Source of the DNA: Promethearchaeota archaeon
GTDB lineage: Archaea; Asgardarchaeota; Lokiarchaeia; Sigyniarchaeales; SOKP01
NCBI GenBank assembly: GCA_016839555.1
Contig: JAEOUA010000010.1
Span: forward strand, 288,001-352,000
Direction of reading: 5' to 3'
Length of the DNA stretch: 64,000 nt
The notes beneath the pieces were generated by a model. It saw only the letters and a program-made list of their open reading frames with translations. It did not search any database and was not told the origin of the DNA. This document shows positions 13,737-35,420 of the stretch, in pieces. A program made the translations under genes and the position numbers. Positions within the stretch are counted from its first letter, which is position 1; every line of letters begins with the position of its first letter.

Positions 13737-14012
13737 TTATTTTGTATTGTTGTTTTTTTCGAAATAATCCAAGATCTTATTCAAATCTAAGACATTTGCC
13801 AGCTTAAACCCTAAGTCAAATAGATTTTTGACTGAATCATTAAAATCATCAAGTAATTCATTGATTGTACTACTATCCAATTTATCAAATAATTGTTTGA
13901 TTTCTTTTTTACTTAAATCAGGTAATTTATTATCCTTTAAATCTTGAATAATTCTCGGTAAATCAATATCAGTTTTTTCTGAGCCGCCTTGATTATTTTC
14001 CATATTCTTCAC
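13737..14012 (-). CDS. Small helical hypothetical protein (alternative start 14003)
   Basis: Overlaps the end of the upstream PlsC-like gene, suggesting translational coupling; amphipathic pattern. Confidence 0.6.
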   Translation of the reverse strand: MKNMENNQGGSEKTDIDLPRIIQDLKDNKLPDLSKKEIKQLFDKLDSSTINELLDDFNDSVKNLFDLGFKLANVLDLNKILDYFEKNNNTK

Positions 14013-14721
14013 TATCTGATTCTGATTTTGATTGATTTGAAATCTTTAAGGAATCTATTATTTTAAGTATACCTTCGGCTAATTCGTAGCGTTGTGGACG
14101 GTATTTGTCTCGATTTAATTTTTTCTCCACTTTGATGGGAGTACCCACATTAACTACTATCCCATCTATATCAAATATATTAAATAATCGAATCTTTTCT
14201 GTATAAACTTTCAAGGGAATAATTGGAGCATCACCTGCCACCGCAAATTTTATTATTGCAGCCATCGATTTTAGTTGTGTTTCATCATCTAATTTTGATT
14301 CCGGAGTCATCGCTACTAAATCATTTTTTTCATTTAAAAATTCAAACACTTGATCAACAGGCTCTTGATCTTCTTTACTTTCTGTGCTTCGGAACATCCC
14401 TAATGTTTTCAAAATAGGTCCTGCAATTTGATGCCTTATTAATTTTGGAGATAACATAAAATGAATTTGTCTCCCACTCAATTGAGCTATTGCCAACATA
14501 TCTCGAAATATATTATCGCTAATCGTGGTTAATAGGGCTTTATCATGTAAGGGAATATTTTCTTTTCCTTTTATTTTTAAATTAGTAAAGGCATCTAAAA
14601 AAAGCCCGGCAACACCTTTAGTAATCCCATATAATACTTTACTAAAATTATCCCTTCCGCCAATTTTTTCAAACATATCTTTTTTTTCTTCTTCTTCTTC
14701 TTGTGGTTGACTTTCTGTCAT
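13993..14721 (-). CDS. PlsC-family glycerolipid acyltransferase-like protein with degenerate catalytic motifs
   Basis: IKGKENIP, IHFM, LVAMTPES, APIIPL, VNVGTPI follow the PlsC fold; HxxxxD is replaced by TISDNIFRD. Confidence 0.7.
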   Translation of the reverse strand: MTESQPQEEEEEKKDMFEKIGGRDNFSKVLYGITKGVAGLFLDAFTNLKIKGKENIPLHDKALLTTISDNIFRDMLAIAQLSGRQIHFMLSPKLIRHQIAGPILKTLGMFRSTESKEDQEPVDQVFEFLNEKNDLVAMTPESKLDDETQLKSMAAIIKFAVAGDAPIIPLKVYTEKIRLFNIFDIDGIVVNVGTPIKVEKKLNRDKYRPQRYELAEGILKIIDSLKISNQSKSESDSEEYGK

Positions 14722-14755
14722 ACTTTGGTGCCTCTCATATTTTAATTTTTATATT

Positions 14756-14959
14756 TTAGACTGTTTCGATAAATTTGTTAACATCTTCCATTCTTTTTTC
14801 ATAATATTCCTTTAAATCTTTGTCTGATACATATCTCGGTATCAAATTTTCGGTAAAAATATCGAACAAAGTTGATAATTTTGACCTGTGCTTTAATGTT
14901 TCAAGAACTTCTCCTCCAATATTTCGGAGTTGCTTTAAGATATCTTTAATCTCTTCCAT
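14756..14959 (-). CDS. Small hypothetical protein, first gene of a three-gene unit with the PlsC-like gene
   Basis: 67-aa ORF ending 34 bp before the PlsC-like start. Confidence 0.55.
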   Translation of the reverse strand: MEEIKDILKQLRNIGGEVLETLKHRSKLSTLFDIFTENLIPRYVSDKDLKEYYEKRMEDVNKFIETV

Positions 14960-15045
14960 CCTTTGTAATACCTATATAAAATTTGTAAATAAGATATTAA
15001 GTATAATTATTTTTTTTTATTTATTGATCATAACCGTTTTAGTTG

Positions 15046-15092
15046 AATAACACAGTGTTATTTAAAAGAATAATCTTCAAAATAAGATTATT
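15046..15092. promoter_or_regulatory. Two adjacent operator-like inverted repeats
   Basis: AATAACAC-a-GTGTTATT (15046-15062) and AATAATCTT-caaaat-AAGATTATT (15069-15092), upstream of the 14959 start. Confidence 0.4.
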
Positions 15093-15378
15093 ATAAGTAT
15101 TGAAATAAAAAGATTTAGTAGTTTTACCTCTCTAAAGAGTATAATAACTATATAACCTTACATACAACAAATTGAAGATTATCATTCGCTCTTTATAGAA
15201 AAAATTAAAGAAGATTTCATTTTTTAGCTTTATTTCTTTTTTAGAGAAAATATAGAATATAAAAGATTAATAGGAGGTTTTAAATGCTCTAAAGAAAAGA
15301 AATTATTGTAGATTTAAAAACAATTATTACATTTAAAATAAAGATTTAACTAATTTTTAATTCAAAAACTTAGCTCTT

Positions 15379-16043
15379 CTAACTTTTCTCTTTTAAACAT
15401 AAAATCTTACCTGCTCTATGTATTATTGGAACATTACATGCAATTATTCCATCCATCTTATTAGGGCCTTCTTGAACAAGCATTTTTAGATGCCCATGCC
15501 TAACTTCTTCATGTGGGTTTAAAGGTCCTCCATCTTGAACTTTAGCTGCTAGATTCTTAAGAATAGGTGGTACATTTGAGTCCTGCCTTTTAGAACTTGG
15601 GGGGGGGTTTCATTTTCTGGTTTGTTAAAAATCCTTGTAAATAATTGAAAAATATTTTGAAATTTTTTTGGATCCTCCCATTTTGCCTTTTGATATTCAA
15701 TTTGTTTTCCTCTCTTAATAAATGGAGTCATTAAAACACCTTGATCCCCATTTTTTAGCTCACCAATAGTTAGCAAAATACTTGACTCAGCACCTGTTTT
15801 TATATTTGTTCCAGTCATAGTTTGATTCCATGCATACATTTCTACATCCATTTTCTGAAAATGGTTTATCATATTTTCAATTGTTTGAGGAATCTCGCTC
15901 CTACTTTTGCAATTTACACTTGCAGGATATATTGTGTCTTTAGTGCGTACCTCTAATATCGGATTTAAGTACCCATACATATTAAAAATCTTTTTGCTAT
16001 TTTCGGCTGCCCTTTTAATTAAAGATTGTAATTTTGTATTCAT
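15379..16043 (-). CDS. Hypothetical protein, apparently frameshifted at a G9 tract (15599-15607)
   Basis: The track ORF stops at 15549. A different frame after the tract stays open for 72 sense codons to a stop at 15379. Confidence 0.55.
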
Positions 16044-16295
16044 TTTAGCTAAAACTCTTTTTTAGTTTAAATATATCTAGATTTGTGCAATAAATTTTAG
16101 GATTAATTATTTATAGATTAGTTAGATTATTATTTATATATATCCAATAGAAATTTTAAATGGATAATATAATAGCCATTATGGTTATGAAATACCAAAA
16201 TTTTTGAAAAATATATTTAAAAAGAGATCGTGTATTCTTAATAAAAAATAAAATACATTTTTTATATAAGTTTATTAAGATTAAAGATTTATTAA

Positions 16296-17318
16296 CTAGA
16301 ATACTTCCCACTTCCCACATCTGCTTCCCCAGCGAGCTATGACTTCATCCCCCTTCTCGGGCATCTTTACTTCGATTATTTCGCAATTGTTAGGACAATC
16401 GCCACAGTGGAAGGTTGATGTTTCAAAATTAAGTTCAGATATTTGTAATCCCCGAAAAGAGGTTTCATTTCCATGATCTAAATAATGATCTCTGACAAGG
16501 ATAGCCATTCCAAGCGCTCCCATAAGCACATTATACTTTGGCACAATAACTTTACAATTAAGATGGCGTTCAAAAGCTTCAATAATACCTTTATTATATG
16601 AGACCCCGCCTTGAAAGACCACAGGTTCTTCTAAATCTTTTCCTTTTGATAAATTATTGAGATAATTTCGGACAAGCGAGTCGCACAATCCAGCAATAAT
16701 ATCTTCTTTTGAGTGCCCCGCATTTTGTTTATGGATCATATCAGATTCGGCGAACACCGTACATCTTCCAGCAATGGATACAGGATTTTCTGATTTTACC
16801 GCATAATCTCCAAATTTCTCAATAGGGATACCTAATCGTGATGCTTGATGATCTAAAAAGGATCCAGTTCCAGCAGCACACACGGAATTCATTGCAAAAT
16901 CGACAATTATTCCATCTCTTAATATGATAATTTTACTATCCTGTCCGCCAATTTCAAGAATAGTTCGGACGTTAGGATACATTGATTGAGTAGCGACAGC
17001 ATGCGCAATAATTTCTGTTTTAGCCAAATCGCCCCCTACGACAGCTTTTGTAAGATATCTAGCCGAACCCGTGGTACCACATGCCTTTATCTCGTAATCT
17101 TCCAACTCGGTTTTTTCTTTAATATGTTCGCGTAATTTAGACATTCCAAATTTAACTGAATCAATAGGGGATCCCCTATTTCTTAAAAAGACATGACTTA
17201 ATACATTACCCTCTCTATCCATTAAAATAAATTTGCATGAAACACTGCCGACGTCAATCCCAAGAAAGGCGTCTTTTTTAGCACCTTGCGTTTCAATTCT
17301 CTCTTTTGCTTGAACCAT
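16296..17318 (-). CDS. 2-hydroxyacyl-CoA dehydratase activase-type ATPase (HgdC/BadF-BadG-BcrA-BcrD, ASKHA, [4Fe-4S]) with Cys-rich C-terminal extension
   Basis: LGIDVGSVS, GTTGSAR, EIGGQDSK, MNSVCAAGTGSFL, GRCTVFAESD, FQGGV; tail CGDCPNNC..WGSRCGKW. Confidence 0.92.
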   Translation of the reverse strand: MVQAKERIETQGAKKDAFLGIDVGSVSCKFILMDREGNVLSHVFLRNRGSPIDSVKFGMSKLREHIKEKTELEDYEIKACGTTGSARYLTKAVVGGDLAKTEIIAHAVATQSMYPNVRTILEIGGQDSKIIILRDGIIVDFAMNSVCAAGTGSFLDHQASRLGIPIEKFGDYAVKSENPVSIAGRCTVFAESDMIHKQNAGHSKEDIIAGLCDSLVRNYLNNLSKGKDLEEPVVFQGGVSYNKGIIEAFERHLNCKVIVPKYNVLMGALGMAILVRDHYLDHGNETSFRGLQISELNFETSTFHCGDCPNNCEIIEVKMPEKGDEVIARWGSRCGKWEVF

Positions 17319-17579
17319 AGTTTTGACCTAATTTTTTTTAATTATTTTCGGTGGGTAATAGGTTTTCCTATATTTTACTCAAATCTTATAATAATAAAAT
17401 ATATCATCTATTAAATGATCTTTTGTACAAATAACTTTTCTTTTCTTTTAAAAAAATCCAATTTTAATATATTAGTAAAAGTATGATTAAAACCATATTT
17501 AGGTCAATTTTTCATAAAAAATAAAATAGTTAAAAAATCAAATAAAAGTATATAATAGTTTCTATTTTATTTTGGTATT

Positions 17580-18506
17580 ATGGATGAAATTGATTTTACA
17601 ATATCATTTATGTTGATGGCAAACTCTAGGATTTCTTATAGCAAAATTGCAGATATATTTAATATGAGTGTAAATAGTATTTATAAACGTATTAAATCAA
17701 TGGTGGAATTAGGAATTATACAAAGTTTTAAAACTAAATTGAGTTTTCTTAATTTTCCTTATACTACGAATATAGTATTATTTGGGAACTCCCCTATTAA
17801 AGAAAAGAAGATCTTAATGGATAAAATAGGGAATAATGAATGTGTCTATAATGTCACACAAGCGAGTGGAGAATTATTTTATATTCATGCCTTTTCGCGT
17901 AATTTGAAGGATTTAGATGCTATAATCTCATTAATAAGAAAAGATGCTAAAATAAATGATCTTACTGTGGGTTTAGATAAAAATTCACCTTCTGCAACTA
18001 TGGATGGAACTATTGAAGCATTTTATACAGATAAAGATTATTTAATAATAAATTCTTTGAGAAATAATTCACGAAAAACTATATCTGATATTGCAGATGA
18101 AGTGGGAATTTCCAGCAAGACGGTCACTCGTCGTTTAAATCGTTTAATTGATGAGAACCTAATAGAATTTACGATTGATTGGTATCCTGACAAAACATCC
18201 GAAATTTTATCGTTTATTATTATCAAGTCGAAACCAGCTAAAGATTTTGATGAAATGAATTTGATGGAAAATATCAAAACTCAATTTGGACAAAAAATTA
18301 TGTATTATTGGAACTTTATAAACCTTCCTAATGTTATGATAATTTTTTGCTGGGCAAATTCTATGAAAGAGCTCCAAGAGATAGAAGCTTATTTAATTGA
18401 ATTGAACCTTGAAAAAGTTGAAATAACGGTTCTTATTGAGGGAAAAATATATCAAACTTGGGTTGATACGTATTTAGATGAAAAAATTAAAGAGCTTAAA
18501 AAATGA
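17580..18506 (+). CDS. Lrp/AsnC-family transcription regulator with duplicated HTH-effector units
   Basis: Two HTHs: ANSRISYSKIADIF..SIYKRI and NNSRKTISDIADEVGISSKTVTRRL. Confidence 0.85.
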   Translation: MDEIDFTISFMLMANSRISYSKIADIFNMSVNSIYKRIKSMVELGIIQSFKTKLSFLNFPYTTNIVLFGNSPIKEKKILMDKIGNNECVYNVTQASGELFYIHAFSRNLKDLDAIISLIRKDAKINDLTVGLDKNSPSATMDGTIEAFYTDKDYLIINSLRNNSRKTISDIADEVGISSKTVTRRLNRLIDENLIEFTIDWYPDKTSEILSFIIIKSKPAKDFDEMNLMENIKTQFGQKIMYYWNFINLPNVMIIFCWANSMKELQEIEAYLIELNLEKVEITVLIEGKIYQTWVDTYLDEKIKELKK

Positions 18507-18868
18507 ACCCATAAATTCTTTTAATTTTTTATTTTTAAAATATGAATATTATCAACCCATAAGTTTACATTTTAGAATTTAATTTAAAAACTTCCTTTTA
18601 ATGATTAATTATTTTATATTCTGAGAATCTTCAAATACATCATTTGTTAGATATTTATTTTAAATCTTCAAATAAAAATATCCAATTTTTTATCCTATTG
18701 GGTGAAAAAATGTCCAAAATATGGTGCTTATTATTCTACTATTCCAACTTTACAATATACATCAACTATATAAGAGAGATTATCTATAGATCTTCATAGA
18801 ATGAAAAAAAATTTTTTAGAAATTTTATAAATAAATTTTCCAATTATAAAAAAATTTGAGGATGAAAA

Positions 18869-19675
18869 ATGAGTTTAAAATCGGAAAATAAATTTGAAAC
18901 CGCTAATCCAGAAGATATTTATGATCCTGATCAAAATTATGCTATTATTACAAAAGATATAGTAAAAATATTTGGTGATATCACTGCTGTTAATGGATTA
19001 AATATAAAGATAAGAGAAGGAGAAATATTTGGACTTCTAGGGCCAAATGGGGCTGGTAAAACCACAACTATTAACATGTTGGTTGGATTATTAAAACCTA
19101 CTAGTGGTGAACTCTTTGTTGGTGGGTATAATGTGAAAAAAGAATTAAGTAAAATTAAAGAAATAATTGGCGTATGCCCGCAACACATCGCAGTCTATAA
19201 ATTCCTTACGGGTCGGGAAAATATTGAATTGTTTGGTAATCTTCATGGAATAAACAAAAAGGAAGTGAAATCACGAGCTGATAATCTCTTAAATGTAGTT
19301 GAATTCATAGAAACTGCTGAAAGAAAGGCAAAAGAATATAGTGGTGGCATGCTGAGTCAATTAAATCTCTTGATGGCATTAATTAGTGACCCAGAAATTG
19401 TGTTTCTTGATGAACCTACCGTGGGAATGGACCCCAGAGCTCGCCGTAAAATATGGCAATTTATTGGTTCGCTCAAAGAACATAAAAAAACTATACTGCT
19501 TACAACCCATTACATTGAAGAAGCAGAAGCTTTATGTGATAGAGTCGCAATAATAGATTATGGAGAGCTAATCGCCCTCGGATCTCCTAAGGAATTAAAG
19601 GAGAAATATAATGCAAAGAATTTAGAGGAGGTATTTTTAGAAATTACAGGAAGAAGAATATTGGAGGGGATCTAA
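18869..19675 (+). CDS. ABC-2 type exporter ATP-binding subunit
   Basis: GPNGAGKTT, YSGGM, FLDEPT, LTTH. Confidence 0.93.
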   Translation: MSLKSENKFETANPEDIYDPDQNYAIITKDIVKIFGDITAVNGLNIKIREGEIFGLLGPNGAGKTTTINMLVGLLKPTSGELFVGGYNVKKELSKIKEIIGVCPQHIAVYKFLTGRENIELFGNLHGINKKEVKSRADNLLNVVEFIETAERKAKEYSGGMLSQLNLLMALISDPEIVFLDEPTVGMDPRARRKIWQFIGSLKEHKKTILLTTHYIEEAEALCDRVAIIDYGELIALGSPKELKEKYNAKNLEEVFLEITGRRILEGI

Positions 19676-19677
19676 AA

Positions 19678-20433
19678 ATGAATATGCTAAGAGTATTTGC
19701 ACTAGTTAAAATGGAATTGAAAAAGATATTAAGGGAGCCGGCTTACCTGTTTTTGATGCTTTTATTTCCGGCGGTGCTATCAATAATTTTTGGATTTGTT
19801 TTTAGTTCGATTCCAAGTGGATCTCCAGGCATAAGTACTTTTGATTTAATGGCTCCTGGTATATTTGCATATGCCTGTATTTTCATAACTATGATTGTAG
19901 CTCAAACATTTTGTGAAGATAGAGAATATGGATTATTAAAACGAATAAATACCACACCAACCACATCAGCTGAATTTATGAGCAGCCATTTGATTTCAAA
20001 TACAATATTATCACTCCTACAAGTAGCAATAGTAGCAATATTCATATTCCTTATGGGTTTTAGACCAGCGGGAGGTGCTTTAGGTTTACCATTTGCCGTT
20101 ATATTCATGGTTTTTCTTTCAATATGTTCAGTAGGGTTTGGCCTAATTACTGCAACAATAGCAAAAAGCTCAGGTTCTGCAACTGGTTTAGCGTTTATTT
20201 TTATATTACCCCAGATGTTTTTTGGTACATTTATTCCTTTAAATGAAAGTACCATTATAATTGCAATGTTTTTTCCAAGTTATTATGCTACTGAATCTCT
20301 CAAGATGATCTTTAGTGGAGTAGCTTTAACAGAGATAATTATATGGATCAATTTATTAGTAATTGTTATAATGAGCTTCATTATTACAATTATTGGAATA
20401 CAATTATTCAAAAAATTTGGATCAATTTATTAG
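19678..20433 (+). CDS. ABC-2 type exporter permease
   Basis: About 6 TM segments; DREYGLLKRINTTP motif; 2 bp after the ATPase gene. Confidence 0.9.
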   Translation: MNMLRVFALVKMELKKILREPAYLFLMLLFPAVLSIIFGFVFSSIPSGSPGISTFDLMAPGIFAYACIFITMIVAQTFCEDREYGLLKRINTTPTTSAEFMSSHLISNTILSLLQVAIVAIFIFLMGFRPAGGALGLPFAVIFMVFLSICSVGFGLITATIAKSSGSATGLAFIFILPQMFFGTFIPLNESTIIIAMFFPSYYATESLKMIFSGVALTEIIIWINLLVIVIMSFIITIIGIQLFKKFGSIY

Positions 20434-20482
20434 TAATTGTTATAATGGGCTTCATTATTACAATTATTGGAATACAATTATT
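20344..20482 (+). repeat. Tandem duplication of 65 bp (20344-20408 and 20418-20482, one mismatch)
   Basis: TGGATCAATTTATTAGTAATTGTTATAATG(A/G)GCTTCATTATTACAATTATTGGAATACAATTATT occurs twice with a 74-bp period. Confidence 0.95.
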
Positions 20483-20601
20483 TTAAAATTTTTTTTAAAA
20501 ATTTGATAAATAAAAAACTATTAAATTAACATAAAGAATAGTAATCATTTTTTTTTTCCAATAGTAATAATTTTTTATATGAGTTTTTATTCTATATTTT
20601 T

Positions 20602-21330
20602 ATGAGTCTGACACCTTTAGATATTCTCAACGGCTCTTTAGGACTTTCGGTTGTATCTATCTCTATTATTCTGGGGATAATCGTATTATTAAAATATTTC
20701 AAAAATCAAGACAAACATTTCATTTTAATGGGTCTTACATTGATTTTCATGACATCAGGCTGGTACGGAACAAGTTTATCCTTTATAGTTGCTTTACTAT
20801 TTAATAATGAGGGATTACCTCTCGAAGCGATTATGCTCTTAAATTTTATTCCGCTTCCCATCAGTTTAATCTCATGGGTTGTATTTTTTACTGATATAAT
20901 CTTGTTAAAATATCGAGGAAAATTAATCATTGGGAGTGTGATAGGATTTACTGTATTTTTTTATGTTGTATTTCTAACCTTACTTTCTATTGACGTTACT
21001 CTTGTTTCAGAAAAGATTTCACCCGTAGATACTTTAGGCAAAAATTGGTTTCTTAATTCATTTATATTTGTGTATGTAGCAATTTTATTAGTTACGGGGA
21101 TAAAATTCTCTCTCGAAACAATCAAATTTGATGATATTGTAATGAGAACTAAAGGCAAATTTCTCCTAATTGCTTTTCCTTCTTTTTCTCTAGCAGGAAT
21201 TCTTGATAGTTCCTTGCCATCAAATGAATATACATTAATTATTTTTAGAGGGATATTAATAACAGGTATAATTTTGTTCTTTATCGGCTTTTTATTACCA
21301 AAATTTATTAAAAAAAAAATAGTGAAATAA
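20602..21330 (+). CDS. Seven-TM hypothetical membrane protein
   Basis: About 7 hydrophobic segments, no catalytic motif. Confidence 0.7.
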   Translation: MSLTPLDILNGSLGLSVVSISIILGIIVLLKYFKNQDKHFILMGLTLIFMTSGWYGTSLSFIVALLFNNEGLPLEAIMLLNFIPLPISLISWVVFFTDIILLKYRGKLIIGSVIGFTVFFYVVFLTLLSIDVTLVSEKISPVDTLGKNWFLNSFIFVYVAILLVTGIKFSLETIKFDDIVMRTKGKFLLIAFPSFSLAGILDSSLPSNEYTLIIFRGILITGIILFFIGFLLPKFIKKKIVK

Positions 21331-22724: not shown

Positions 22725-23948
22725 TTAGGCTAATTGAATACTACATGGAAATATGGCTGCCCTTAGTTCATTTCCATGCATCTTTTCTAATTCTTGTACC
22801 AATGTATCCAATTTACCAAAGAGTTTTACAGATTTAGGGAAAAAATGATACAAATCATATTTAGAGATGTTAGGGGAAAACAAAAGGACATCTCTGCGTT
22901 TCACAAAAGCTCTCCAAACAACATTATCCCCTATATTTGTGTATATTCTAGAACCTGTTTGCCCTGTTAAGCTATGGTATCCTCTTCCCTCATAAGAGGA
23001 AGACATCAAAACAATTGTACCTTTTCTTTTTAACATCTTACTCGGAGCGGTCATTAGAAAATTAAAGCCCTTAATTGCTTGGCTTAATTCTGAATCTTCT
23101 GGATATAGATTAAAAAAAGCCACATCATTATCTAATGTAACTTCAGTATTATAAAATTCTTTTCCAATTTCCATCGCCCTTCTATGAGCATCTCTAAAAT
23201 GTCCAGAAGTTATTGCCCCAATATTTCCTTCCTCGGTTAAAATTACATTCACAGAAAAGTCTAATCCCACTTTATCTGCTATTTCCTCAATATCTTCGCG
23301 AACTTTAGTCATTCTTCCTATTCCCGCACCTATGCCACGCATCGCTGCAGAATGATTTGCTTCAAGAGTTTTAATACCAGAAACACCTGGCAATACTATC
23401 TTTGCTCCTCCTCCAAAACCTGCTAAAGGATGAGGAATAACCCCTCCAATTGAAATTTTTAGATCTGCTTCATAATATGTCTTATTAATATGAATGGGCG
23501 TTCCCATCTTAGATTCACCTAATTCTACTAAATTTTCATAAGGATGATGATTTTCAATATTAATAGTATCAACCACATCTTTTCCTAATTTAAGAATACA
23601 ATCGTGCCGGTTCATTGGTTTATGTGCCCCTATTGCGAGTAAAATAGTAATTTTCGATCTATCTATGTTAGCCTCTTCTAATTCGCTGAGAATATACGGC
23701 ATAATTTTGTAGATGGGAGTCGTTCTGGTCATATCATCAACCACTATAACTACATTTTCTTTTCCTTTCGCCAACTCAGATATTCTTTCTGTTCCAATGG
23801 GATTTAAAATGCTTTCTTTAATTTTCTCATTATTTATCTCGGAATTTCCATTCATTCTGCACACAGAAATATCCCAGCTATCTGGTAACTTTAATTCCAA
23901 GGTTTCAGGAGCGCGCCATGCGGCCCAAGGTATTTTTATAGATGGCAT
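22725..23948 (-). CDS. larA: LarA-family (nickel-pincer) alpha-hydroxy-acid racemase/epimerase
   Basis: VVDDMTRTTP, AIGAHKPM, PHPLAGFGGGAKIVLPG. Confidence 0.8.
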   Translation of the reverse strand: MPSIKIPWAAWRAPETLELKLPDSWDISVCRMNGNSEINNEKIKESILNPIGTERISELAKGKENVVIVVDDMTRTTPIYKIMPYILSELEEANIDRSKITILLAIGAHKPMNRHDCILKLGKDVVDTINIENHHPYENLVELGESKMGTPIHINKTYYEADLKISIGGVIPHPLAGFGGGAKIVLPGVSGIKTLEANHSAAMRGIGAGIGRMTKVREDIEEIADKVGLDFSVNVILTEEGNIGAITSGHFRDAHRRAMEIGKEFYNTEVTLDNDVAFFNLYPEDSELSQAIKGFNFLMTAPSKMLKRKGTIVLMSSSYEGRGYHSLTGQTGSRIYTNIGDNVVWRAFVKRRDVLLFSPNISKYDLYHFFPKSVKLFGKLDTLVQELEKMHGNELRAAIFPCSIQLA

Positions 23949-25246: not shown

Positions 25247-26656
25247 TTGAAAACTGAATTAGACCTAATGGATCATGATTTCCGATATACTGAATTATTT
25301 CCGATATATCTTTTGGCTGGTTGCTTTACCTTAGCCTTTTCAAGTCTTTATATATTAGTAGTGCCCTTATCCTCATTATTTTGGCCCGGAGATGAGTTTC
25401 ATGCCCTTGAAATGGGAATTCTCATATCTACCATGTTTTGGCCCATAGCAATATCTGGTTTAATGTGGGGTAGGTTTATTGATAAATATAATAGAGTAAA
25501 AATATTTTTTATTGTGGCTTTTGCTCGTGGAGTGTGTCTAATTCTTATGAGTTTCACAGTAATGGGACTTGGTATTATCTCATGGACTTATTTTTATATT
25601 TTAATTTTGATTTTTGCCATTTTTGCTGGAGGTAATTACCCGACAGTTGTATCGCTAGCAGATGATATTGTTCCTGAAGGAAAAAGATCACGATTTTTTG
25701 GCATTTATAATATTATAAGAAGCAGCTTTCAATTTATTGGGTTTGTTGTAGTAGGTTTTTTAGTTCAGATAGGATTATGGCAATGGATATTCAGTAGTAT
25801 AGGCATATTAATGATCATAGCAGGAGTAATCATGGTAAAAAAAATTAAGGAACCTAAACGAGGGATTCAAAGAGAAGAATTAAAAAATGTTTTAAAAAAA
25901 TCTGAGGTGGTGTATAATTTTCAAATTGACCGAGAAACTATGAAAAAGACTATGCTAAGTAAGACTAATGTGGTTGCTTTAATTGAAGGTATTTTTACAA
26001 GTGTGTTTATGGGAAGCTTAACCATCTTATTTTTACCTTATATACAATCTCCACCCTATAATATCTCACCCTTTTCAACTGGTGTATTCTTAGCATTTTT
26101 TGGTCTGACGGGAGGACTCATTGGTATGGGTTTTTTTGCTCATTATTCCGACAAATTATCGAAAAAAAAATCGATACTGCGGATCTTTTTTATTATCATT
26201 TCTTTATCAGTTGGTATGATAACCTTCGTCTTTCTCTTTTTCATACCCCTTCCTCCTCTCACAGTTGAGGAAGGGAAAGATCTCTCTCGATTTATGGTAG
26301 ATCCCACTGTATGGATTATGGGTATAATATATTTATTATCCACATCATTTTCAGCCTTATATAACATCAATCAACCTCCTTTATTACAGGAAATTAACTT
26401 ACCTGAAGCTCAAGGCCAAATAATAGCATGGAATCGTTTTCTTGAAGAAATTGCGTGGGGATTGGGGCCATTCATATCGGGAATCTTTATAACCATCTCT
26501 GGTCAGAATTACCAACTAGTTTCAATAATAATAGGGCTTTTTGCTGTTCCCGGAATAATTTTATGGATATTCGCATTAAAATGGTATCCGAAGGATAAAG
26601 AAGAAATAATCAAGATATTAGAACAACGCTCAAAAGACCTAGAATCTAGAGAATGA
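25247..26656 (+). CDS. MFS transporter (paralog of 35842-37281; ATG alternative at 25268)
   Basis: About 12 TM; GRFIDKYNR; shares EPKRG, TMLSKTN.VALIEGIFT and LQEINLPEAQGQI with the paralog. Confidence 0.85.
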   Translation: MKTELDLMDHDFRYTELFPIYLLAGCFTLAFSSLYILVVPLSSLFWPGDEFHALEMGILISTMFWPIAISGLMWGRFIDKYNRVKIFFIVAFARGVCLILMSFTVMGLGIISWTYFYILILIFAIFAGGNYPTVVSLADDIVPEGKRSRFFGIYNIIRSSFQFIGFVVVGFLVQIGLWQWIFSSIGILMIIAGVIMVKKIKEPKRGIQREELKNVLKKSEVVYNFQIDRETMKKTMLSKTNVVALIEGIFTSVFMGSLTILFLPYIQSPPYNISPFSTGVFLAFFGLTGGLIGMGFFAHYSDKLSKKKSILRIFFIIISLSVGMITFVFLFFIPLPPLTVEEGKDLSRFMVDPTVWIMGIIYLLSTSFSALYNINQPPLLQEINLPEAQGQIIAWNRFLEEIAWGLGPFISGIFITISGQNYQLVSIIIGLFAVPGIILWIFALKWYPKDKEEIIKILEQRSKDLESRE

Positions 26657-26701: not shown

Positions 26702-27895
26702 TTAACTTTTCTGCACTAGTTCCAAACATTCCCTATAAAAGAGATTTCCATAATGATTATTTGGTACCTGTATAATATTTTCTTTTTTCTTCTGCTGTTC
26801 TCTTAAATGATTCCTTCTGGCATTCATTAAATCTATAAATGCCTCCAAACGTGTTCGAAAGCCCTCGACTCCACTCTGCTCATCAAATGAGAAAAAGATC
26901 ACCGGCATATCATATTTCTTTTTAAGTTTATTAGTAATGATAGTTCGAGCAGTTATTTCAGGCATACAGGTGAAAGGGTAACTATGTACGAAGCCATCAA
27001 AACCTGCTTTTGCATTATCAATATACTGTCCTATAATCCAGACAGCTTCTCCTCCTATATCCATTGGCATGTATGGTTTGGCTACATGTTCTAACCATTT
27101 TCTATGAAAATTCACATGCAGTTTATGAGCAATCCAATCATATAAACTAAGACTTTGGTAAAGTTCTACACCCATTTCGCCCAATCTTCTTCGAATATCG
27201 AGGTTTACATATGGTTCTAAGGTAATATAAATTTCTCCGGCAAGGCCTACTTTTAAAACATCCCTTGATTTGTCAAGGTCAATTTTATTGAAATCTTCTT
27301 TAATAACCGATTTGAAATGTCTAAGCTCATGGAGAGTATTTGCATCGTCAAGTTTATGTAATAAACGATTCACTGTTTTTGTGGTGATTCCTTGTTCTCG
27401 TTCATACGCACGAAATACTCCCTCCGCTGTATGTATATTTTGTAGATATAAGCATTTTTTTAAGAAGAAAATAACGGCTTTTACAAAATTAGAATATTTA
27501 AAAAGCCCTGCTACTTGATTTACTTCAAAAAGGGTTTTTACCCAACTGAAATCTAAAAGGTCTGCTTGATCAAGAGGAATAAGCCGAAAATCCTTATAGC
27601 CCACATCTCGAAAAATGCGCTCTTGAACACTGGCATAGAACCCAAATCTGCAGGGTCCACAATCAATCGCCATGATAATAGTATTTGCTCCTTTATCAAG
27701 CGCGCTTTTTAATTCACCAAGCGTTGCCTTAAAGGGGAAACATACAAATTCGGGGCTATGTTTTACTCCAAACTTTACCAACTCGCGATTGACTGGTGTA
27801 GGTAACACTACTTCTGCATCTAGGGATTCAATAAGCGATTTAAAAGCGACCCAAGATGTTCCCATGCGAGGGAATGTTACCTTCGGATTCGGCAT
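26702..27895 (-). CDS. 2-hydroxyacyl-CoA dehydratase-like subunit (PlsR/Ger reduction-dehydration domain-like)
   Basis: HSPEFVCFPFK, GPCRFGFY, GEIY..LEP..N, PFTCMPE, DEQSG..G..TRLEAF. Confidence 0.8.
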   Translation of the reverse strand: MPNPKVTFPRMGTSWVAFKSLIESLDAEVVLPTPVNRELVKFGVKHSPEFVCFPFKATLGELKSALDKGANTIIMAIDCGPCRFGFYASVQERIFRDVGYKDFRLIPLDQADLLDFSWVKTLFEVNQVAGLFKYSNFVKAVIFFLKKCLYLQNIHTAEGVFRAYEREQGITTKTVNRLLHKLDDANTLHELRHFKSVIKEDFNKIDLDKSRDVLKVGLAGEIYITLEPYVNLDIRRRLGEMGVELYQSLSLYDWIAHKLHVNFHRKWLEHVAKPYMPMDIGGEAVWIIGQYIDNAKAGFDGFVHSYPFTCMPEITARTIITNKLKKKYDMPVIFFSFDEQSGVEGFRTRLEAFIDLMNARRNHLREQQKKKENIIQVPNNHYGNLFYRECLELVQKS

Positions 27896-27914
27896 TTTTG
27901 TAGTTTATTTATCC

Positions 27915-28030
27915 ATGAAAATTAGTATATTATGGAAAGAAATGTTCATACTATAAAAAATATTTTCATCTCAATAATTATATTAAACATATTTTTCAAT
28001 CAATATTTTCTTTAAAGGTGTTAATATTTT
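27915..28030. repeat. Copy 1 of ~115-bp imperfect direct repeat (copy 2 at 29665-29780)
   Basis: Exact 34-bp core CATACTATAAAAAATATTTTCATCTCAATAATTA at 27947 and 29697; flanks colinear with offset 1750. Confidence 0.85.
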
Positions 28031-28124
28031 TATAATAAATAATTGAAAAGAACGCCGACAGAATTTATATGCCAGAAATAATTCGGTTCAAATCTAATGA
28101 CTCTGAGTTTAAATAAATTATTTA

Positions 28125-29603: not shown

Positions 29604-29646
29604 AAAACCACCAATACTTTTTTAATATATTTTAATAATAATTTTC

Positions 29647-29667
29647 CATCAGTAGAATTTACTGATG
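29647..29667. promoter_or_regulatory. Operator-like palindrome upstream of the sugar isomerase-like gene
   Basis: CATCAGTA-gaatt-TACTGATG, 44-64 bp upstream of the 29603 start. Confidence 0.5.
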
Positions 29668-29780
29668 AAAATAAATATCTTATACAAAGAAGTACACATA
29701 CTATAAAAAATATTTTCATCTCAATAATTAAATTAATCATATTTTTCTATCAAAATTTTCCTTAAAGGAACTAACATATT
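29665..29780. repeat. Copy 2 of ~115-bp imperfect direct repeat
   Basis: See copy 1; overlaps the last 16 codons of the 29733-30185 ORF. Confidence 0.85.
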
Positions 29781-30185
29781 TTTATTTAAAATCTTAAAAT
29801 ATGCTATTATTTTATCCAAAACATAAAAAATGAGAGCATTGGCAAAATTTCTCGCAACACAGTAAATGTTTGCCGGGAATTTTGTGGCATTTTTACTCTT
29901 TTCACGAATTACATCATCATAAGGAAAAACAATTGAAACGGCACGTATATCAGATTCTTTAATATTATTCATTTCCAATCCATTTTTTTCCCAAAATTCT
30001 AGGGGGGTCAAATAGGTCTCTTTAATGATTTCATTATATTCTTTGAAGATTGGATCATCCCCTTTTGCTATACCAATTAAGGGCTTTGAAAATATAATGC
30101 CACTACCATATTCCTCAGGTAATCGATTTAATTCATTATTTTTAAGCACATCTTCTACGAATTTATATAGTTTTTCATTGTTCAT
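29733..30185 (-). pseudogene. 3'-truncated epoxyqueuosine-reductase-like / 4Fe-4S protein
   Basis: IFSKPLIGIAKGDDPIF..YLTPLE..AVSIVFP..AR matches the N-terminal half of this family. No Fe-S Cys motifs follow, and the ORF ends within the repeat. Confidence 0.6.
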
Positions 30186-30287
30186 TTTAATTTCTGTTCT
30201 AAAGGAATAACATTTTATATTAAATTATATATCATTTAATCCATAATTCTATTAAATTAATTGAATTTTTAAATTTGATAATTCTTT

Positions 30288-30695
30288 TCAGTTTTTCCTT
30301 TTATCAATCATATATAAGATGTTTAATAGTGACCAAATTAATGGAAGAATTGCCCACATTACTTCTGTAAAGACAAATTCAAAATAACCAATTGCGATAT
30401 ATGTAATTTGTAATATACTAAATGAAAATCCAGCGGGTATTCCTAATATTATTAAAATTTCGTACTTCTTCATATTCTTATAGAGAAGAATATTACCAAT
30501 TCCGTTATAAATAATCATCCAGAGCCAAAAGAAACTTATCATCGCTCTCGCGCGAGCTGAAAAGGGTTTAGTTCCTACTAACGAAGCGAGTACAGGAGCA
30601 AAGAAGATCATAAAAAGAGCGACAAAGGTAAAAGTTATGCCAAAAATTAGCCAAATTTTCTTCCATATTTTCTCAGAAAACATTTTTGCTTTCAT
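30288..30695 (-). CDS. Small 4-TM hypothetical membrane protein
   Basis: Four hydrophobic segments. Confidence 0.65.
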   Translation of the reverse strand: MKAKMFSEKIWKKIWLIFGITFTFVALFMIFFAPVLASLVGTKPFSARARAMISFFWLWMIIYNGIGNILLYKNMKKYEILIILGIPAGFSFSILQITYIAIGYFEFVFTEVMWAILPLIWSLLNILYMIDKRKN

Positions 30696-30809
30696 CCTCT
30701 TATTTTCATTAAATAATTTTGATTAAATTTCATAGATTGTATTTTAATTATTAAACATTTTTAAAAAGTATATTTATCAAATGGAGAACATTTTCAACTT
30801 AGAGAAACT

Positions 30810-31718
30810 ATGAAAGATATACTTATTAAGATTTCTGATGATTTTCCAGAAATTTTTTTCGTAAAAGGACAGAGAAACGGAAAATACCCATATTCCCATA
30901 GTATGCTATTAAAAGACACTCTTATTGATACAGGAATATCAAGCGGTTTTTTAAGGAAACTTAAACGAAAAATAAAAATTAATAATGTAATTTTATCACA
31001 CTGGCACGAGGATCATATATGTGGCAATCGTCTCTTATCCCAGGCGAATTTTATGGCTCATAAGGAAGATATCCATATAATAGAAGATATATCGAAAATG
31101 TACGAATATTATCACGTGTCCAATGATCCTGAGCAAATTGAACTTTTTGACGCTATTTTACAAGGTTTACGATTAAAGAATACCACCATTGATAGCATTC
31201 TCTCAGATAAGGATATTATAGAAATAAACGATTTATACGAACTGCAAGTTATTCATACGCCAGGGCATACCAAAGGTCATTCTTGTTTTTATGAGAAAAA
31301 TTCAAAAATTATATTTTTAGCAGATATTGACTTAAGCAGTTTCGGTCCTTGGTATGGATGTAAAGATTCAAATATTATGGAATTTGAAGACTCTATTAAA
31401 AAATTAAAAGAATTGCAGATTGAAATAGCAGTCTCCGCTCATAAAGGTATTATTTATGGGTCAAGTAATATCCAGAATCAGCTAGAGGAGTATTTAAAAA
31501 AAATATATCAAAGAGATGAAAAAATATTAAAATTTCTTTCAGAAAATTCCCCTAAAACTTTAGAAGACCTAGCAAACAAAAATATTATCTATTCTACCTA
31601 TAGTGAATATAAAATTTATGAAATCCTTGCTGAAAAAATAATGATTAAATCTCATTTAACTAAACTACTTAAAGAAAATAAAATTTCACAAAAAAATAAT
31701 GGATATATTTTGAGCTAG
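30810..31718 (+). CDS. Metallo-beta-lactamase-fold hydrolase with C-terminal wHTH
   Basis: LIDTG, SHWHEDH, HTPGHT, LADID, SAH. Confidence 0.88.
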   Translation: MKDILIKISDDFPEIFFVKGQRNGKYPYSHSMLLKDTLIDTGISSGFLRKLKRKIKINNVILSHWHEDHICGNRLLSQANFMAHKEDIHIIEDISKMYEYYHVSNDPEQIELFDAILQGLRLKNTTIDSILSDKDIIEINDLYELQVIHTPGHTKGHSCFYEKNSKIIFLADIDLSSFGPWYGCKDSNIMEFEDSIKKLKELQIEIAVSAHKGIIYGSSNIQNQLEEYLKKIYQRDEKILKFLSENSPKTLEDLANKNIIYSTYSEYKIYEILAEKIMIKSHLTKLLKENKISQKNNGYILS

Positions 31719-31832
31719 AGATTCTTTCTACTTAAAAAATAAATAATGATAAAAATATAAAGATTAAAAACTAGAATAATAAAAATAGATAATTAAGGAA
31801 AAATACTGTGCTGATTAAATAATTCAGACATT

Positions 31833-32894
31833 TTAAAAGATTTCAGCTTTTTGCTCCCTTTTTTCTATCTCGAATCTCTTCTTCCGTTTTATCATTTCCG
31901 TGAAAGCCCCAATTCTTGTTTTCAAACCCGCGTCGCCAGAATGCTCATCCATTATGATAGCCAAGTAAGGGAGTCTCACCACTTTCATATCTCTCATGAT
32001 TAATTCAGAAATAAGGCTATCTGGTCCACAAGCAAAACTAATTAAGAACACAACACCGTCTATTTCATTTCTTCCTTTAGTTAGATAATATCTAACCGCC
32101 TGCATGAGCTCTTCCTCATGTATCCAATAATTTTGGAGTTTTCTATTCACAACAACAGGTACTTTAAACACAGATTCAGGCAAATTTTCAATAGTTAATA
32201 CCTCCGCGCCCATTTCATGTAATTTCTTCTGAAAATCTAAGTTAATATAGGTATCAAATAGATTATATCCGTGGCCCAGCAACAAAAGTTTTATCTCACC
32301 TTTCTTCTGTTTTTTTGGCAATTTGAAGGGTCTGTCTCGCCTAACTAACCGTAATGCATAATTAACAGGAGCACCTTCTCGGAGGAAATTTAAATATTCC
32401 CGGTAATAATTCTTTGCTTTTTCATAAGCCTCTAATGATTCTTCTCTGCTTTTTCCTAATTGCTTACCAAGCTCTATAGCAGAAATAGATATGGGAAATT
32501 CTTTTATATTAACTTCAAAATTCAATATCTCTGGAACATTGGGAAGAATTTTGATTACATCGGGAAGTGAGATAAATTTAGGACAGAAGAATCCCTCTTT
32601 TACATCTGACACGTATCGAGGAACAAACAAATAATCTAAATCCGGGTAATTTTCTATTAAATGAAATATATGCCCATAATAGATTTTCATAGGAATGCAA
32701 AGTTCACCAAAGCCATGCTGGACGCCCACCTCTACGATTTTTTTGTTTGTTTCAGGGCTTAATATGATTTCCACTCCTAATTCATCTAAAATTTTTTTCC
32801 AAAATGGGAAGTATCGATAGTAATGAAGCGCACGTGCGATACCGACTTTGATTTTTGAACTCTCTTCTTGTTGTATAATTGACATTTTAAGCAT
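31833..32894 (-). CDS. DUF2229 / acyl-CoA dehydratase activase-related subunit (PlsA/Ger-like domain)
   Basis: VGIARALHYY, ELCIPMK..GH, FFCPKF..LPD, LLGHGYN, SFACGPDS, DEHSGDAG..TR..AF. Confidence 0.82.
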   Translation of the reverse strand: MLKMSIIQQEESSKIKVGIARALHYYRYFPFWKKILDELGVEIILSPETNKKIVEVGVQHGFGELCIPMKIYYGHIFHLIENYPDLDYLFVPRYVSDVKEGFFCPKFISLPDVIKILPNVPEILNFEVNIKEFPISISAIELGKQLGKSREESLEAYEKAKNYYREYLNFLREGAPVNYALRLVRRDRPFKLPKKQKKGEIKLLLLGHGYNLFDTYINLDFQKKLHEMGAEVLTIENLPESVFKVPVVVNRKLQNYWIHEEELMQAVRYYLTKGRNEIDGVVFLISFACGPDSLISELIMRDMKVVRLPYLAIIMDEHSGDAGLKTRIGAFTEMIKRKKRFEIEKREQKAEIF

Positions 32895-32905
32895 TTACTA
32901 GATGT

Positions 32906-34612
32906 TTAAACTTCTGTTTCATCATATACTAAGAGTTCTTCAATTCTCTTCATCAGATTATTTGTTAATCTCTTTAATTCATCATAATCTGGCATTGGTT
33001 TATCAAAATATTTTGCATGTTCCATAAAGGGTTCTCCCGCTTTAAAAGTAGAGCCATGTCCAAAATAGATCGTTTTTGCGTGTTTAGGATAGGTATGTTC
33101 GGTACCTGTTATTCCTATGGGAATGATCGGAACTTTCGCATTAATTGCTAACCGAACCGCGCCTGTATGTCCCTCTAAAACCTCTGGTCCAGAGTGAGTA
33201 GTACCTTCGGGATATACCACTACTAATTCTCCATCTTCAAGCCTATCTTTTGAATAACTATAAGATTCCATATCATGAGTACCTCTTCTTAACGGATATG
33301 CGTGGTGAGTTCGCACCCAAGCATTAACAATCGGGATTTGAAATAATTCTTGTTTTGACATCTGATATAGCATCCGTCTCTTCGTCACCTCTAGACAATA
33401 AGCATGCATGATTACATCCCATTCAGAGTTATGATTCGAACAAATCAAAGCTCCTCCTTCATCTGGCACATTCTCATATCCTTCAATTTTAAGTGGCGCA
33501 AAATTGTCAACGATGAATTTTACAGTCGGATATGTGAGACCATGTTGAATAAGTTCTTGGAATTTATATCGGAGTCCAAATTCTTCCAGGATTTTCAATA
33601 AAGCAAACCATGCATCATCGATAGATTGAAGGAAATAATTTTGATAATATTTTAACCAATATTTAAATCCCTTTTGTTGTTTTTCTTTTTTCTCATCTTC
33701 TGGAGATCCTATAGAAAGCTCATCTGGAGTTTTGTGTTTAATTACCTTTTTTGCATATTGTCCCTTTCCTTCACGTAAATCTAGTATCTTTTGCCGTAAT
33801 TCATCTGTTAATTTCCTTGCGAGTTCAGGAGTAAGTTTTCCCTTATATTCATCATAACGGAAGGGTTTTCCTACTCGGGCTTTCACTTGAACGGGAGTAC
33901 CAATTAATTTTCCCTTAGGAAGAGCATCCCGTGATCCTAAAATGGCTATCGGAACTATTGGCACACCAGTCTCTACTGCAAGTCTTACGGCTCCCGTTTT
34001 AAATTCACCTAAAGTGCCATCCATACTTCTCGTACCTTCTGGAAAGATGCCTACGCATTCACCTATTTCTAATTTATGTTTTGCATAAACCCATGCTTTT
34101 TTTACATCCTCCTTATTTCCTCTTTCACCTAATGTAAATGCACTTAAGTTTTTAAATAGCGTACGAATAATGGGAGTCTTAAAGTTCTCTGGTTTGCTCA
34201 TAAAGTTTAATTTACGAAAATTTGTCATACCGCAGAAGAAAGGATCAAGGTGCGAATTATGATCTGAAACTACAATACATGGTTCGGTATCTGGGAAAAG
34301 TTGGCCATCTTCATATTCGCAATCAAATCTCCATAAAAGACGACAAGCGTGTTTTACCCAAATTTCCGCCAGCCACCATTGAATTCTTTGCTCTGATTCG
34401 GTTAGTCCTAATTGATCAATTATTTTACGATAGATATCATTTAAGGGATCAATAGGGTTGTATTTTAAAATTTTATAGAGAAAATTTTGATGAGGTTTTT
34501 TCCATTTTAATTCCTCGCTGGGTCGCTCTTCTTCAGCCTCCCATTCACCTATAGTCTTCTGTTGAATATTACTAATTTTTTCCTTTTCTATTTCACTTTC
34601 TTGTTCTACCAT
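32906..34612 (-). CDS. plsC: Tandem two-domain PlsC-family glycerolipid acyltransferase
   Basis: Domain 1 has HNSHLD, FMSK, FPEGTRS; domain 2 has HNSEWD, QMSK, YPEGTTH. Both HxxxxD motifs are intact. Confidence 0.88.
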   Translation of the reverse strand: MVEQESEIEKEKISNIQQKTIGEWEAEEERPSEELKWKKPHQNFLYKILKYNPIDPLNDIYRKIIDQLGLTESEQRIQWWLAEIWVKHACRLLWRFDCEYEDGQLFPDTEPCIVVSDHNSHLDPFFCGMTNFRKLNFMSKPENFKTPIIRTLFKNLSAFTLGERGNKEDVKKAWVYAKHKLEIGECVGIFPEGTRSMDGTLGEFKTGAVRLAVETGVPIVPIAILGSRDALPKGKLIGTPVQVKARVGKPFRYDEYKGKLTPELARKLTDELRQKILDLREGKGQYAKKVIKHKTPDELSIGSPEDEKKEKQQKGFKYWLKYYQNYFLQSIDDAWFALLKILEEFGLRYKFQELIQHGLTYPTVKFIVDNFAPLKIEGYENVPDEGGALICSNHNSEWDVIMHAYCLEVTKRRMLYQMSKQELFQIPIVNAWVRTHHAYPLRRGTHDMESYSYSKDRLEDGELVVVYPEGTTHSGPEVLEGHTGAVRLAINAKVPIIPIGITGTEHTYPKHAKTIYFGHGSTFKAGEPFMEHAKYFDKPMPDYDELKRLTNNLMKRIEELLVYDETEV

Positions 34613-34628
34613 ATTAAAATATCATCTC

Positions 34629-35420
34629 TCAAGATTTTATTTTTAATGAATTTTTTTCATTAGTGTTTGTTATTTCTTTATATTTTATTCCAAATAATTC
34701 CAATAATTGGTTCAACGAATTCAAAAGTAAATCAGGATGAAAACTCTGAAGAATATCCTCATTACTTATTCCACTGGAAATAGCAATGGTCCATAATCCC
34801 GCTTCACGGCCAGCTTCTATATCTGTGGGCATATCTCCCACCAGCAAAAATTCATTTCCATGAAAGGGATTATATCGGCTTAAGACGGGCTGAAGTGCTC
34901 GAGGATCTGGCTTTAATACCGGTAATTCATCGGCTCCAAAAACACCATCGAAATAATCCTTACAATTTTCCTCCTCTAAATGCTGGATGATATTCTTCGT
35001 CTGATTATGAGAAACTATATACAAATCGTATTTTTTACTCAATTCTTTAATTAATTGAATAGCTTCTGCGAAAAATTTCGCTTCTTTTTCATATTCTAAA
35101 TATTTAGAGAAGATTTTGGTGGCAATGCTTAATTTTTTTAAGAAGGTGATATTGCTTAGCGAGGTTATATGTTTGAAGATTTGATGTGATTGAAGGATTA
35201 TTTTTGGTAATGGATATCCTTGTACAGATTCTATCACGGCCCCTATCTCTTTAATAGTTTTTTCCATATCATATTCAATCTTATTTTCTTTGAGAACTTC
35301 ATCAATTGAACGTTCTAGTGGTTCATTTATATCCAATAACGTGCCATCAAAATCAAAAATGATACTACGTAAAGTATTGGATTCAAGCCAATTCAATAGT
35401 AGATTGTCTTTATCGTTCAT
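34629..35420 (-). CDS. HAD-superfamily phosphatase (subfamily IA)
   Basis: FDFDGTLLD, VSHN, KPDP, VGDMPTDIEAG. Confidence 0.88.
   Translation of the reverse strand: MNDKDNLLLNWLESNTLRSIIFDFDGTLLDINEPLERSIDEVLKENKIEYDMEKTIKEIGAVIESVQGYPLPKIILQSHQIFKHITSLSNITFLKKLSIATKIFSKYLEYEKEAKFFAEAIQLIKELSKKYDLYIVSHNQTKNIIQHLEEENCKDYFDGVFGADELPVLKPDPRALQPVLSRYNPFHGNEFLLVGDMPTDIEAGREAGLWTIAISSGISNEDILQSFHPDLLLNSLNQLLELFGIKYKEITNTNEKNSLKIKS

Follow-up and report, generated by a model that had tools for sequence, protein, structure and literature searches.

The window analyzed here is a 64,000-nucleotide stretch of the genome of a Promethearchaeota archaeon of the class Lokiarchaeia (contig JAEOUA010000010.1, positions 288,001 to 352,000; G000:C10:288001-352000 in our numbering), taken from an assembly of 3.74 Mb that is 92% complete. 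Seven minus-strand genes spread across 22 kb of the window correspond to a single operon that is conserved in Asgard archaea and has become dispersed here; it comprises a HAD phosphatase, a double acyltransferase of the PlsC family (PlsC2), the reductase subunits Red1 and Red2, the activase Act, a degenerate PlsC-fold protein (dead PlsC) and a small open reading frame (ORF). By sequence, Act, Red1 and Red2 together make up a three-subunit enzyme of the benzoyl-CoA reductase/2-hydroxyacyl-CoA dehydratase superfamily. They belong to its DUF2229 branch, as do the plasmalogen synthase of bacteria, PlsA/PlsR, and Ger, a glycerol ester reductase. The predicted system is a reductase of the PlsA/Ger type, split into three subunits and linked to PlsC. 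The best single explanation of the locus, to which we give a probability of about 45%, is that the reductase would convert the acyl ester of the PlsC2 product to an alk-1-enyl or alkyl ether. The grounds for this lipid reading are the family to which the subunits belong and the linkage to PlsC in an operon specific to Asgard archaea.

An ORF listing combined with Pfam and NCBIfam scans confirmed all six genes of the earlier note on this DNA, with their coordinates, strand, domains and intergenic gaps, and added a seventh, a small ORF of 91 aa. The HAD phosphatase gene (34629-35420; 263 aa; HAD_2, 91 bits) is the first of the operon, and is followed after 16 bp by the gene of PlsC2, an LPLAT acyltransferase of 568 aa with two PF01553 domains (32906-34612; 198 bits). 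A gap of 11 bp separates the latter from the gene of Red1 (31833-32894; 353 aa), which consists of a DUF2229 domain (152 bits) and a 60-aa HGD-D tail. Red2 (26702-27895; 397 aa) has a weak N-terminal DUF2229 match and an HGD-D tail, and Act (16296-17318; 340 aa) is an HgdC-type ATPase/activase (BcrAD_BadFG, 165 bits; TIGR00241, 196 bits). The gene of the dead PlsC (13993-14721; 242 aa; PF01553, 26 bits) overlaps by 20 nt with the small ORF (13737-14012), whose product is acidic and helical. In this genome, some 20 kb of unrelated genes are inserted between the operon parts. They are of mixed orientation and include an HTH regulator, ABC transporter genes, a Ras-family GTPase, a LarA-like racemase, a short-chain dehydrogenase/reductase, MFS transporters and a metallo-beta-lactamase.

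The operon is preserved in relatives, with ~70% identity in Red1 among bins that bear the labels Lokiarchaeota/Promethearchaeota, Thorarchaeota and Hermodarchaeota. On a Hermodarchaeota-labelled contig (L016), all seven genes are contiguous in the order HAD, PlsC2, Red1, Red2, Act, dead PlsC and an ORF of 88 aa, and two genomes of the window's own family (G040, locus L098; G104, locus L099) keep them contiguous in the same order as far as the dead PlsC. A second family (f2; G089, G094) has the arrangement PlsC, PlsC, Red1, Red2, Act, with 45-60% identity. Of 120 genomes sampled from the phylum, 16 contain a Red1 orthologue whose identity is 44% or higher, and in every one of them one or more PlsC genes lie directly upstream of Red1; Red2 adjoins Red1 at L016, L098, L099, L102 and L103. 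Closer relatives (G019 and G030) display an intermediate dispersal with different intervening genes, and none of the 13 window genes located between the cluster parts has a homologue in the corresponding intervals of relatives. The earlier proposal of one ancestral cluster split by insertions is confirmed by the contiguous loci and by intervening genes that relatives do not share, and the comparison of synteny across Asgard genomes that it called for finds the PlsC linkage kept.

Between Red1 and Red2 in the window, a gene of 492 aa that matches no Pfam or NCBIfam family is bracketed by a 143-nt direct repeat (27907-28049 and 29657-29799), whose copies are 80% identical and 1750 bp apart. Because the copies reproduce the region upstream of Red2, the repeat fits a duplicative insertion that contributed to the break-up of the cluster.

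At three loci of relatives (L014, L097 and L111), the genes of PlsC2 and Red1 are directly followed by those of an Act1-Act2-Red1 protein (865-985 aa) and a Red2-like protein (462-474 aa), that is, by a PlsA/PlsR arrangement (L097:12402-15335 and 10975-12384, minus strand; L111:10019-14404; L014:13073-17070). The Red2-like protein is divergent and has no Pfam match, and the pair was not found in the genome of the window. The Red1 part of the larger protein belongs to the clade of fused bacterial proteins described below. Since the pair adjoins PlsC2-Red1, a fused-clade member is also linked to this acyltransferase operon, which raises the odds of a lipid substrate. Some genomes gather three paralogous DUF2229 systems at this locus.

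Act, Red1 and Red2 align collinearly and over their full length to bacterial Act1-Act2-Red1-Red2 proteins of 1350-1440 aa. Act covers residues ~300-640 of the fused proteins (33-44% identity), Red1 residues ~650-1000 (21-32%) and Red2 residues ~1000-1380 (19-25%). Act matches the fused proteins best at their second activase domain and the linker that follows, with 42-44% identity across ~330 aa. All 12 cysteines that are invariant in the aligned set are retained by the three subunits. Cys147 and Cys186 of Act, the pair predicted to bridge the [4Fe-4S] cluster, are invariant with the fused proteins. The C-terminal extension of Act contains a Cys4 motif (C305-x2-C308-x3-C312...C334) that follows the activase domain as it does after Act2, and is invariant in a set of eight fused proteins and five Asgard orthologues. 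Cys66, Cys104 and Cys289 are invariant in Red1, as are Cys52, Cys82 and Cys310 in Red2. These features support the view that the three Fe-S/ATPase genes form one predicted system that matches the PlsA/Ger-type architecture part for part.

Single-gene PlsA is found in Enterococcus, Lactococcus and Bifidobacterium. The published architecture of PlsA is Act1, Act2, Red1, Red2 (PMC12838417), and PlsA/PlsR of Clostridium perfringens (CPE1194/1195) is naturally split between Red1 and Red2 (PMC12838417). The HgdC-type activase, Cys4 linker, Red1 (DUF2229) and Red2 of the window follow one another in the same alignment order. Ger, in turn, is described as BBD plus H/D pieces, with the Pfam pattern B-B-D-H-D-D-H (PMC13159169). 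This pattern of Ger, which is represented by proteins of Thermotoga maritima (Tmari_0479) and Desulfatibacillum alkenivorans (SHJ90043), is equivalent to the window's set of Act, a DUF2229 protein with an HGD-D tail (Red1) and a short DUF2229 protein with an HGD-D tail (Red2). The best-scoring fused matches to Red1 (24-32% identity, E down to 1e-39) group with sequences labelled Thermotogaceae and Desulfobacterales, and identity to the Firmicutes-type fused forms is 20-26% in Red1 and Red2 and ~33-34% in Act.

The predicted window system differs from PlsA/PlsR and from Ger in the same respects. It consists of three separate genes in the order Red1-Red2-Act, with a single activase gene in place of the fused Act1-Act2; its Red1 falls outside the fused clade; and it is linked in an operon to PlsC genes, a linkage that is absent from 80 bacterial loci. 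No tandem Act1-Act2 activase was found elsewhere in the genome, and an Act homodimer could stand in for the fused domains.

An ATP-driven activase that serves a heterodimeric Fe-S core is likewise characteristic of 2-hydroxyacyl-CoA dehydratases, class I benzoyl-CoA reductases and DCCP. The best solved folds for Red1 are found in these systems (HgdAB/HadBC with HgdC/HadI, BzdNOPQ, MbdONPQ and DCCP/DCCP-R). The model of Red1, with a predicted local distance difference test score (pLDDT) of 95, matches HadBC, DCCP and BzdNO (3o3m, 7yyl, 6eno, 8s02, 9g87) with a probability of 1.0 and a template modeling (TM) score of ~0.5, but with only 11-18% identity; the solved structures searched include no PlsA or Ger. 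In contrast to these enzymes, Red1 has no full-length HGD-D or NCBIfam dehydratase match. Its HGD-D match is confined to the 60-aa tail (residues 276-335; 27 bits, under the cut-off), HadC is reached with an E value of 0.006, and the window activase has the additional Cys4 extension. The genome contains three canonical HGD-D pairs elsewhere, one on contig 3 beside an activase of 265 aa, which is the only activase other than Act and is too short for the Cys4 motif, and two more on contigs 4 and 6. Red1 and Red2 are the only DUF2229 genes that family searches of the assembly retrieved. The partial HGD-D match and the canonical pairs elsewhere set these subunits apart from the classic dehydratases of amino-acid fermentation and from benzoyl-CoA reductases, as had been anticipated.

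A tree of 95 Red1 sequences was computed (a quick LG+G4 analysis), with 9 sequences of the paralogous Red2 as the root. One clade, with 100% support in the Shimodaira-Hasegawa-like approximate likelihood ratio test (SH-aLRT), unites all 26 fused proteins from bacteria, of the Firmicutes/Fusobacterium-type as well as the Thermotogaceae/Desulfobacterales-type, with the three Act1-Act2-Red1 proteins from Asgard archaea. The window Red1 is nearest to the Asgard copies that are likewise linked to PlsC and to a paralogue in which Red1 is joined to a flavoprotein domain of the VAO type; the joint clade has 98% support. The tree suggests that the three-subunit split form, and not the fused bacterial protein, is the older state of the enzyme family. 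The earlier suggestion of a split PlsA/Ger machine is thus upheld as regards architecture and cysteines, while the rooted tree places Red1 outside the fused PlsA/Ger-type clade, in a sister radiation of split enzymes.

The flavoprotein-fused paralogue carries an N-terminal VAO/PCMH-type FAD-binding domain (L097:8128-10641, minus strand; L107:11625-13409; P0121-P0123). Within the main cluster it sits as an insertion that separates Red1 from Red2, and an activase and a Red2 of its own come after it. The domain was considered as a candidate AGPS, which would be specific evidence for ether lipids, and was rejected, as its closest solved relatives are cytokinin dehydrogenases (E 9e-20) and AGPS is reached with just E 5e-4.

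The phylogenetic position and the solved folds bear on an alternative in which Act, Red1 and Red2 reduce or dehydrate some other carbonyl or hydroxyl group, such as that of a 2-hydroxy- or oxo-acyl thioester donor or of a head-group intermediate, with PlsC2 handling the product or the substrate; the outcome would be an unusual acyl lipid or ester and not an ether. The radiation to which Red1 belongs has no characterized member, and lies outside the clade to which PlsA and Ger are presumed to belong. CoA thioesters or small molecules are the substrates of the closest solved folds, genes of an acyl-CoA dehydrogenase, a 3-hydroxyacyl-CoA dehydrogenase and a thiolase come after the operon in relatives, and the VAO-fused paralogue hints at varied redox chemistry within the clade. 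On the other hand, PlsA and Ger, both of which are lipid ester reductases, are the sole characterized DUF2229 proteins in the literature searched. All cluster-binding cysteines and the Act2 Cys4 motif are common to the window system and PlsA/Ger, and the fused-clade member in relatives is linked to the same PlsC2 operon. We regard a different chemistry of this kind as unlikely, though a serious contender. In relatives, the flanks of the operon (L014:1-1526 and 11089-12282; L015:10969-13351) include thiolase, 3-hydroxyacyl-CoA dehydrogenase, acyl-CoA dehydrogenase and old-yellow-enzyme genes, a neighborhood that hints at a link to acyl-CoA metabolism.

PlsC2 scores 162 bits with TIGR00530 against a cut-off of 103, which both of its halves pass, and both domains contain the HX4D and PEGT motifs of bacterial PlsC (AGPAT/LPLAT) enzymes, HNSHLD118 and FPEGT190 in the first and HNSEWD394 and YPEGT467 in the second, so that both active sites are intact by motif. 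It differs from bacterial PlsC in having two domains per chain and in lacking a predicted transmembrane helix, with no hydrophobic stretch of the required length. The named relatives among its best 120 matches are all from Asgard archaea, with at least 50% identity. The family searches of the assembly found no PF01553 gene outside the cluster (the degenerate 242-aa gene scores below the search threshold), and they found no PlsY, PlsX partner or acyl carrier protein (ACP) either, a further difference from the bacterial setting. Because ACP and PlsY were not found and the genome has many AMP-binding (acyl-CoA ligase-like) genes, at least 12, acyl-CoA is the likely donor for PlsC2.

The second PlsC-fold gene of the window also departs from bacterial PlsC, being catalytically dead by motif. 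The histidine of HX4D is replaced and PEGT reads TPES in all seven orthologues. As these nevertheless retain 54-63% identity to one another, the dead PlsC is by its sequence pattern a conserved pseudo-enzyme under selection. ORFs of 63-92 aa follow its gene at L016, L099, L100 and L108 and share an FDLG motif; the 91-aa product of the window matches no Pfam family. The HAD protein has the DxDxT motif (DFDGT at residue 23) and the C-terminal GDxxxD motif (GDMPTD near residue 195), and reaches no NCBIfam equivalog cut-off. Its gene lies directly upstream of PlsC2 at L016, L097, L098, L099 and L111, with 45-57% identity.

An MFS transporter gene (35842-37281, plus strand; MFS_1) is divergently oriented from the HAD gene, and its membership in the cluster is uncertain. 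Orthologues with 58-67% identity stand beside the HAD gene at L108 and L111, and NCBIfam assigns the protein to no specific subfamily. A paralogue of this transporter is encoded at 25247-26656, inside the dispersed cluster.

The conserved, divergent position of this transporter, together with the failure of the family searches to find PlsY and ACP, would suit a cluster devoted to lipid scavenging or remodeling instead of de novo synthesis, where PlsC2 would re-acylate lyso-lipids or glycerol esters acquired from bacterial partners, the HAD enzyme would dephosphorylate them and the reductase would remodel them. The PlsC2 domains also match the acyltransferase part of Aas-type acyl-ACP-phospholipid acyltransferases (110 bits). 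However, the MFS proteins display no LplT-specific signal (the best score, 17 bits, belongs to a different MFS gene), a single double-domain PlsC whose sites are both intact could carry out the two acylations unaided, and the conserved core includes no lipase or phospholipase. A scavenging role is, in our judgment, rather improbable.

In the proposed route to an ether lipid, PlsC2 would use acyl-CoA to acylate glycerol phosphate or a lyso-lipid, as its place in the operon indicates. By analogy with its family, two copies of Act would pair around a [4Fe-4S] cluster held by Cys147 and Cys186, and would spend ATP to drive a low-potential electron into a Red1/Red2 heterodimer, each subunit of which would hold one cluster on its three conserved cysteines. 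The reductase could then convert the acyl ester of the PlsC2 product, most likely at sn-1, to an alk-1-enyl or alkyl ether, in the manner of PlsA and Ger. The substrates of PlsA/PlsR are diacyl glycerolipids, and its reaction is driven by ATP and sensitive to oxygen (PMC8788747, PMC12838417). The HAD enzyme would remove phosphate, and the dead PlsC and its small partner may be non-catalytic lipid-binding or scaffold parts; the operon context again provides the basis for these roles.

Several observations weigh against the conversion of esters to ethers. The window Red1 lies in a broad, poorly resolved radiation of stand-alone Red1 proteins without known function, so that function is not transferable by phylogenetic bracketing, and its identity to the fused forms is just 21-32%. 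The anchors of the tree are taxon-labelled relatives from metagenome-assembled genomes, and characterized PlsA, PlsR and Ger sequences are not among them. Outside Asgard archaea, split Red1-Red2-Act modules (L113, L115) have no lipid-gene neighbors, and neither PlsC nor HAD occurs within 3 kb of any of the 80 bacterial fused genes. Six genomes of another family in the phylum contain Red1-Red2(-Act) at ~30-35% identity and no PlsC2. The inference of a lipid substrate from the PlsC linkage, drawn in the earlier note, is accordingly strengthened by the conservation of the linkage in Asgard relatives and weakened by its absence from split modules elsewhere and from the bacterial fused genes. In G083, a 100% complete genome, HAD, PlsC2 and the dead PlsC remain close together (L108, G083:C6:62000-80000) and no Red1, Red2 or Act was found with the queries used. 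The reductase module seems to have been deleted naturally there, which means that the acyltransferases do not depend on the reductase. Finally, the sole published lipid analysis of a Lokiarchaeial strain, MK-D1, detected isoprenoid ethers only, and the strain was reported to be without ester-lipid genes (PMC7015854), although the lipid method could miss ester lipids (PMC13400652).

The loss of only the reductase genes from G083 speaks for a reductase, for instance a DCCP-like small-molecule reductase, that would be functionally unrelated to the acyltransferases and whose adjacency would be inherited gene order. The break-up of the cluster in the window without loss of any gene, and the stand-alone split modules elsewhere, are compatible with this. 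Against it, the adjacency in all 16 genomes with a Red1 orthologue extends across two families at 45% identity and to Hermod- and Thor-labelled contigs, with gaps of ~10 to 100 bp, and it is at this same locus that the three paralogous DUF2229 systems of some genomes gather. Mere inherited order is a long shot under these circumstances.

The families of PlsC and PlsA/Ger are mostly bacterial, which raised the prospect of a chimeric contig of bacterial origin or of an error in binning. The G+C content is even across the window (0.25-0.36), and Asgard-typical genes, such as the Ras-family GTPase, flank the cluster and occur between its parts. Orthologues of the cluster genes number in the hundreds, the named ones coming from Asgard bins and including a 3.3-Mb closed record. 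A bacterial chimera is excluded by the even G+C and the Asgard-type neighbors, to which the orthologues in named Asgard bins add, and we consider such an origin virtually negligible. The genome also has GGGP synthase and glycerol-1-phosphate-dehydrogenase-like genes, indicating that the archaeal lipid pathway is present in the organism.

Three further features of the dispersed region were noted. A homologue of the LarA-family nickel-pincer 2-hydroxyacid racemases (22725-23948, minus strand; NF052593, 255 bits, below the cut-off) is co-oriented with the cluster between Red2 and Act. It was rejected as a cluster member and is regarded as an insertion, since it has no homologue near the cluster in 19 Asgard loci. 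A run of nine G residues at 15599-15607, where the local G+C is 29%, lies in a small ORF region (15549-16043) between Act and the dead PlsC, and could be a slippage site. A 74-nt tandem duplication (20341-20488; 95% identical) spans the 3' end of an ABC-2 permease gene (19678-20433) and continues past its stop codon.

Asgard PlsC genes have been known since 2015-2019, and both PlsC and Ger homologues have been treated as scattered single genes. PlsC and PlsY were reported in Loki- and Thorarchaeota (PMC6737245), and Ger homologues, defined by an E value of at most 1e-50 and a coverage of at least 30%, were reported in 2022 in Lokiarchaeota, including P. syntrophicum, and in Heimdallarchaeota (PMC13159169). 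The novelty implied by the earlier note is smaller to that extent. The published Lokiarchaeota Ger homologues are most likely the 865-985-aa Act1-Act2-Red1 proteins of the relatives. No description of a conserved acyltransferase-reductase operon was found in the literature searched, which covered Asgard archaea in combination with PlsC, ether and plasmalogen, as well as DUF2229.

The only acyltransferases found in this genome share a conserved operon with a phosphatase, a pseudo-acyltransferase and an Fe-S reductase that is ATP-driven and belongs to the ester-to-ether family. This bears on how eukaryotes, whose membranes consist of fatty-acyl lipids, could arise from an archaeal host with membranes of isoprenoid ethers. 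The operon offers a concrete pathway hypothesis for non-isoprenoid ether lipids in close relatives of eukaryotes, and makes the idea of mixed membranes in Asgard archaea directly testable. It is possible, if on the doubtful side, that Asgard archaea of the Loki-, Thor- and Hermod-types make fatty-acid-derived 1-O-alk(en)yl-2-acyl glycerolipids beside their isoprenoid ethers by means of an ancestral split PlsA/Ger-type enzyme. If this is true, they would possess a lipid class that is chemically between archaeal and bacterial/eukaryotic membranes, and would be an unrecognized source of non-isoprenoid alkyl glycerol ethers in anoxic sediments.

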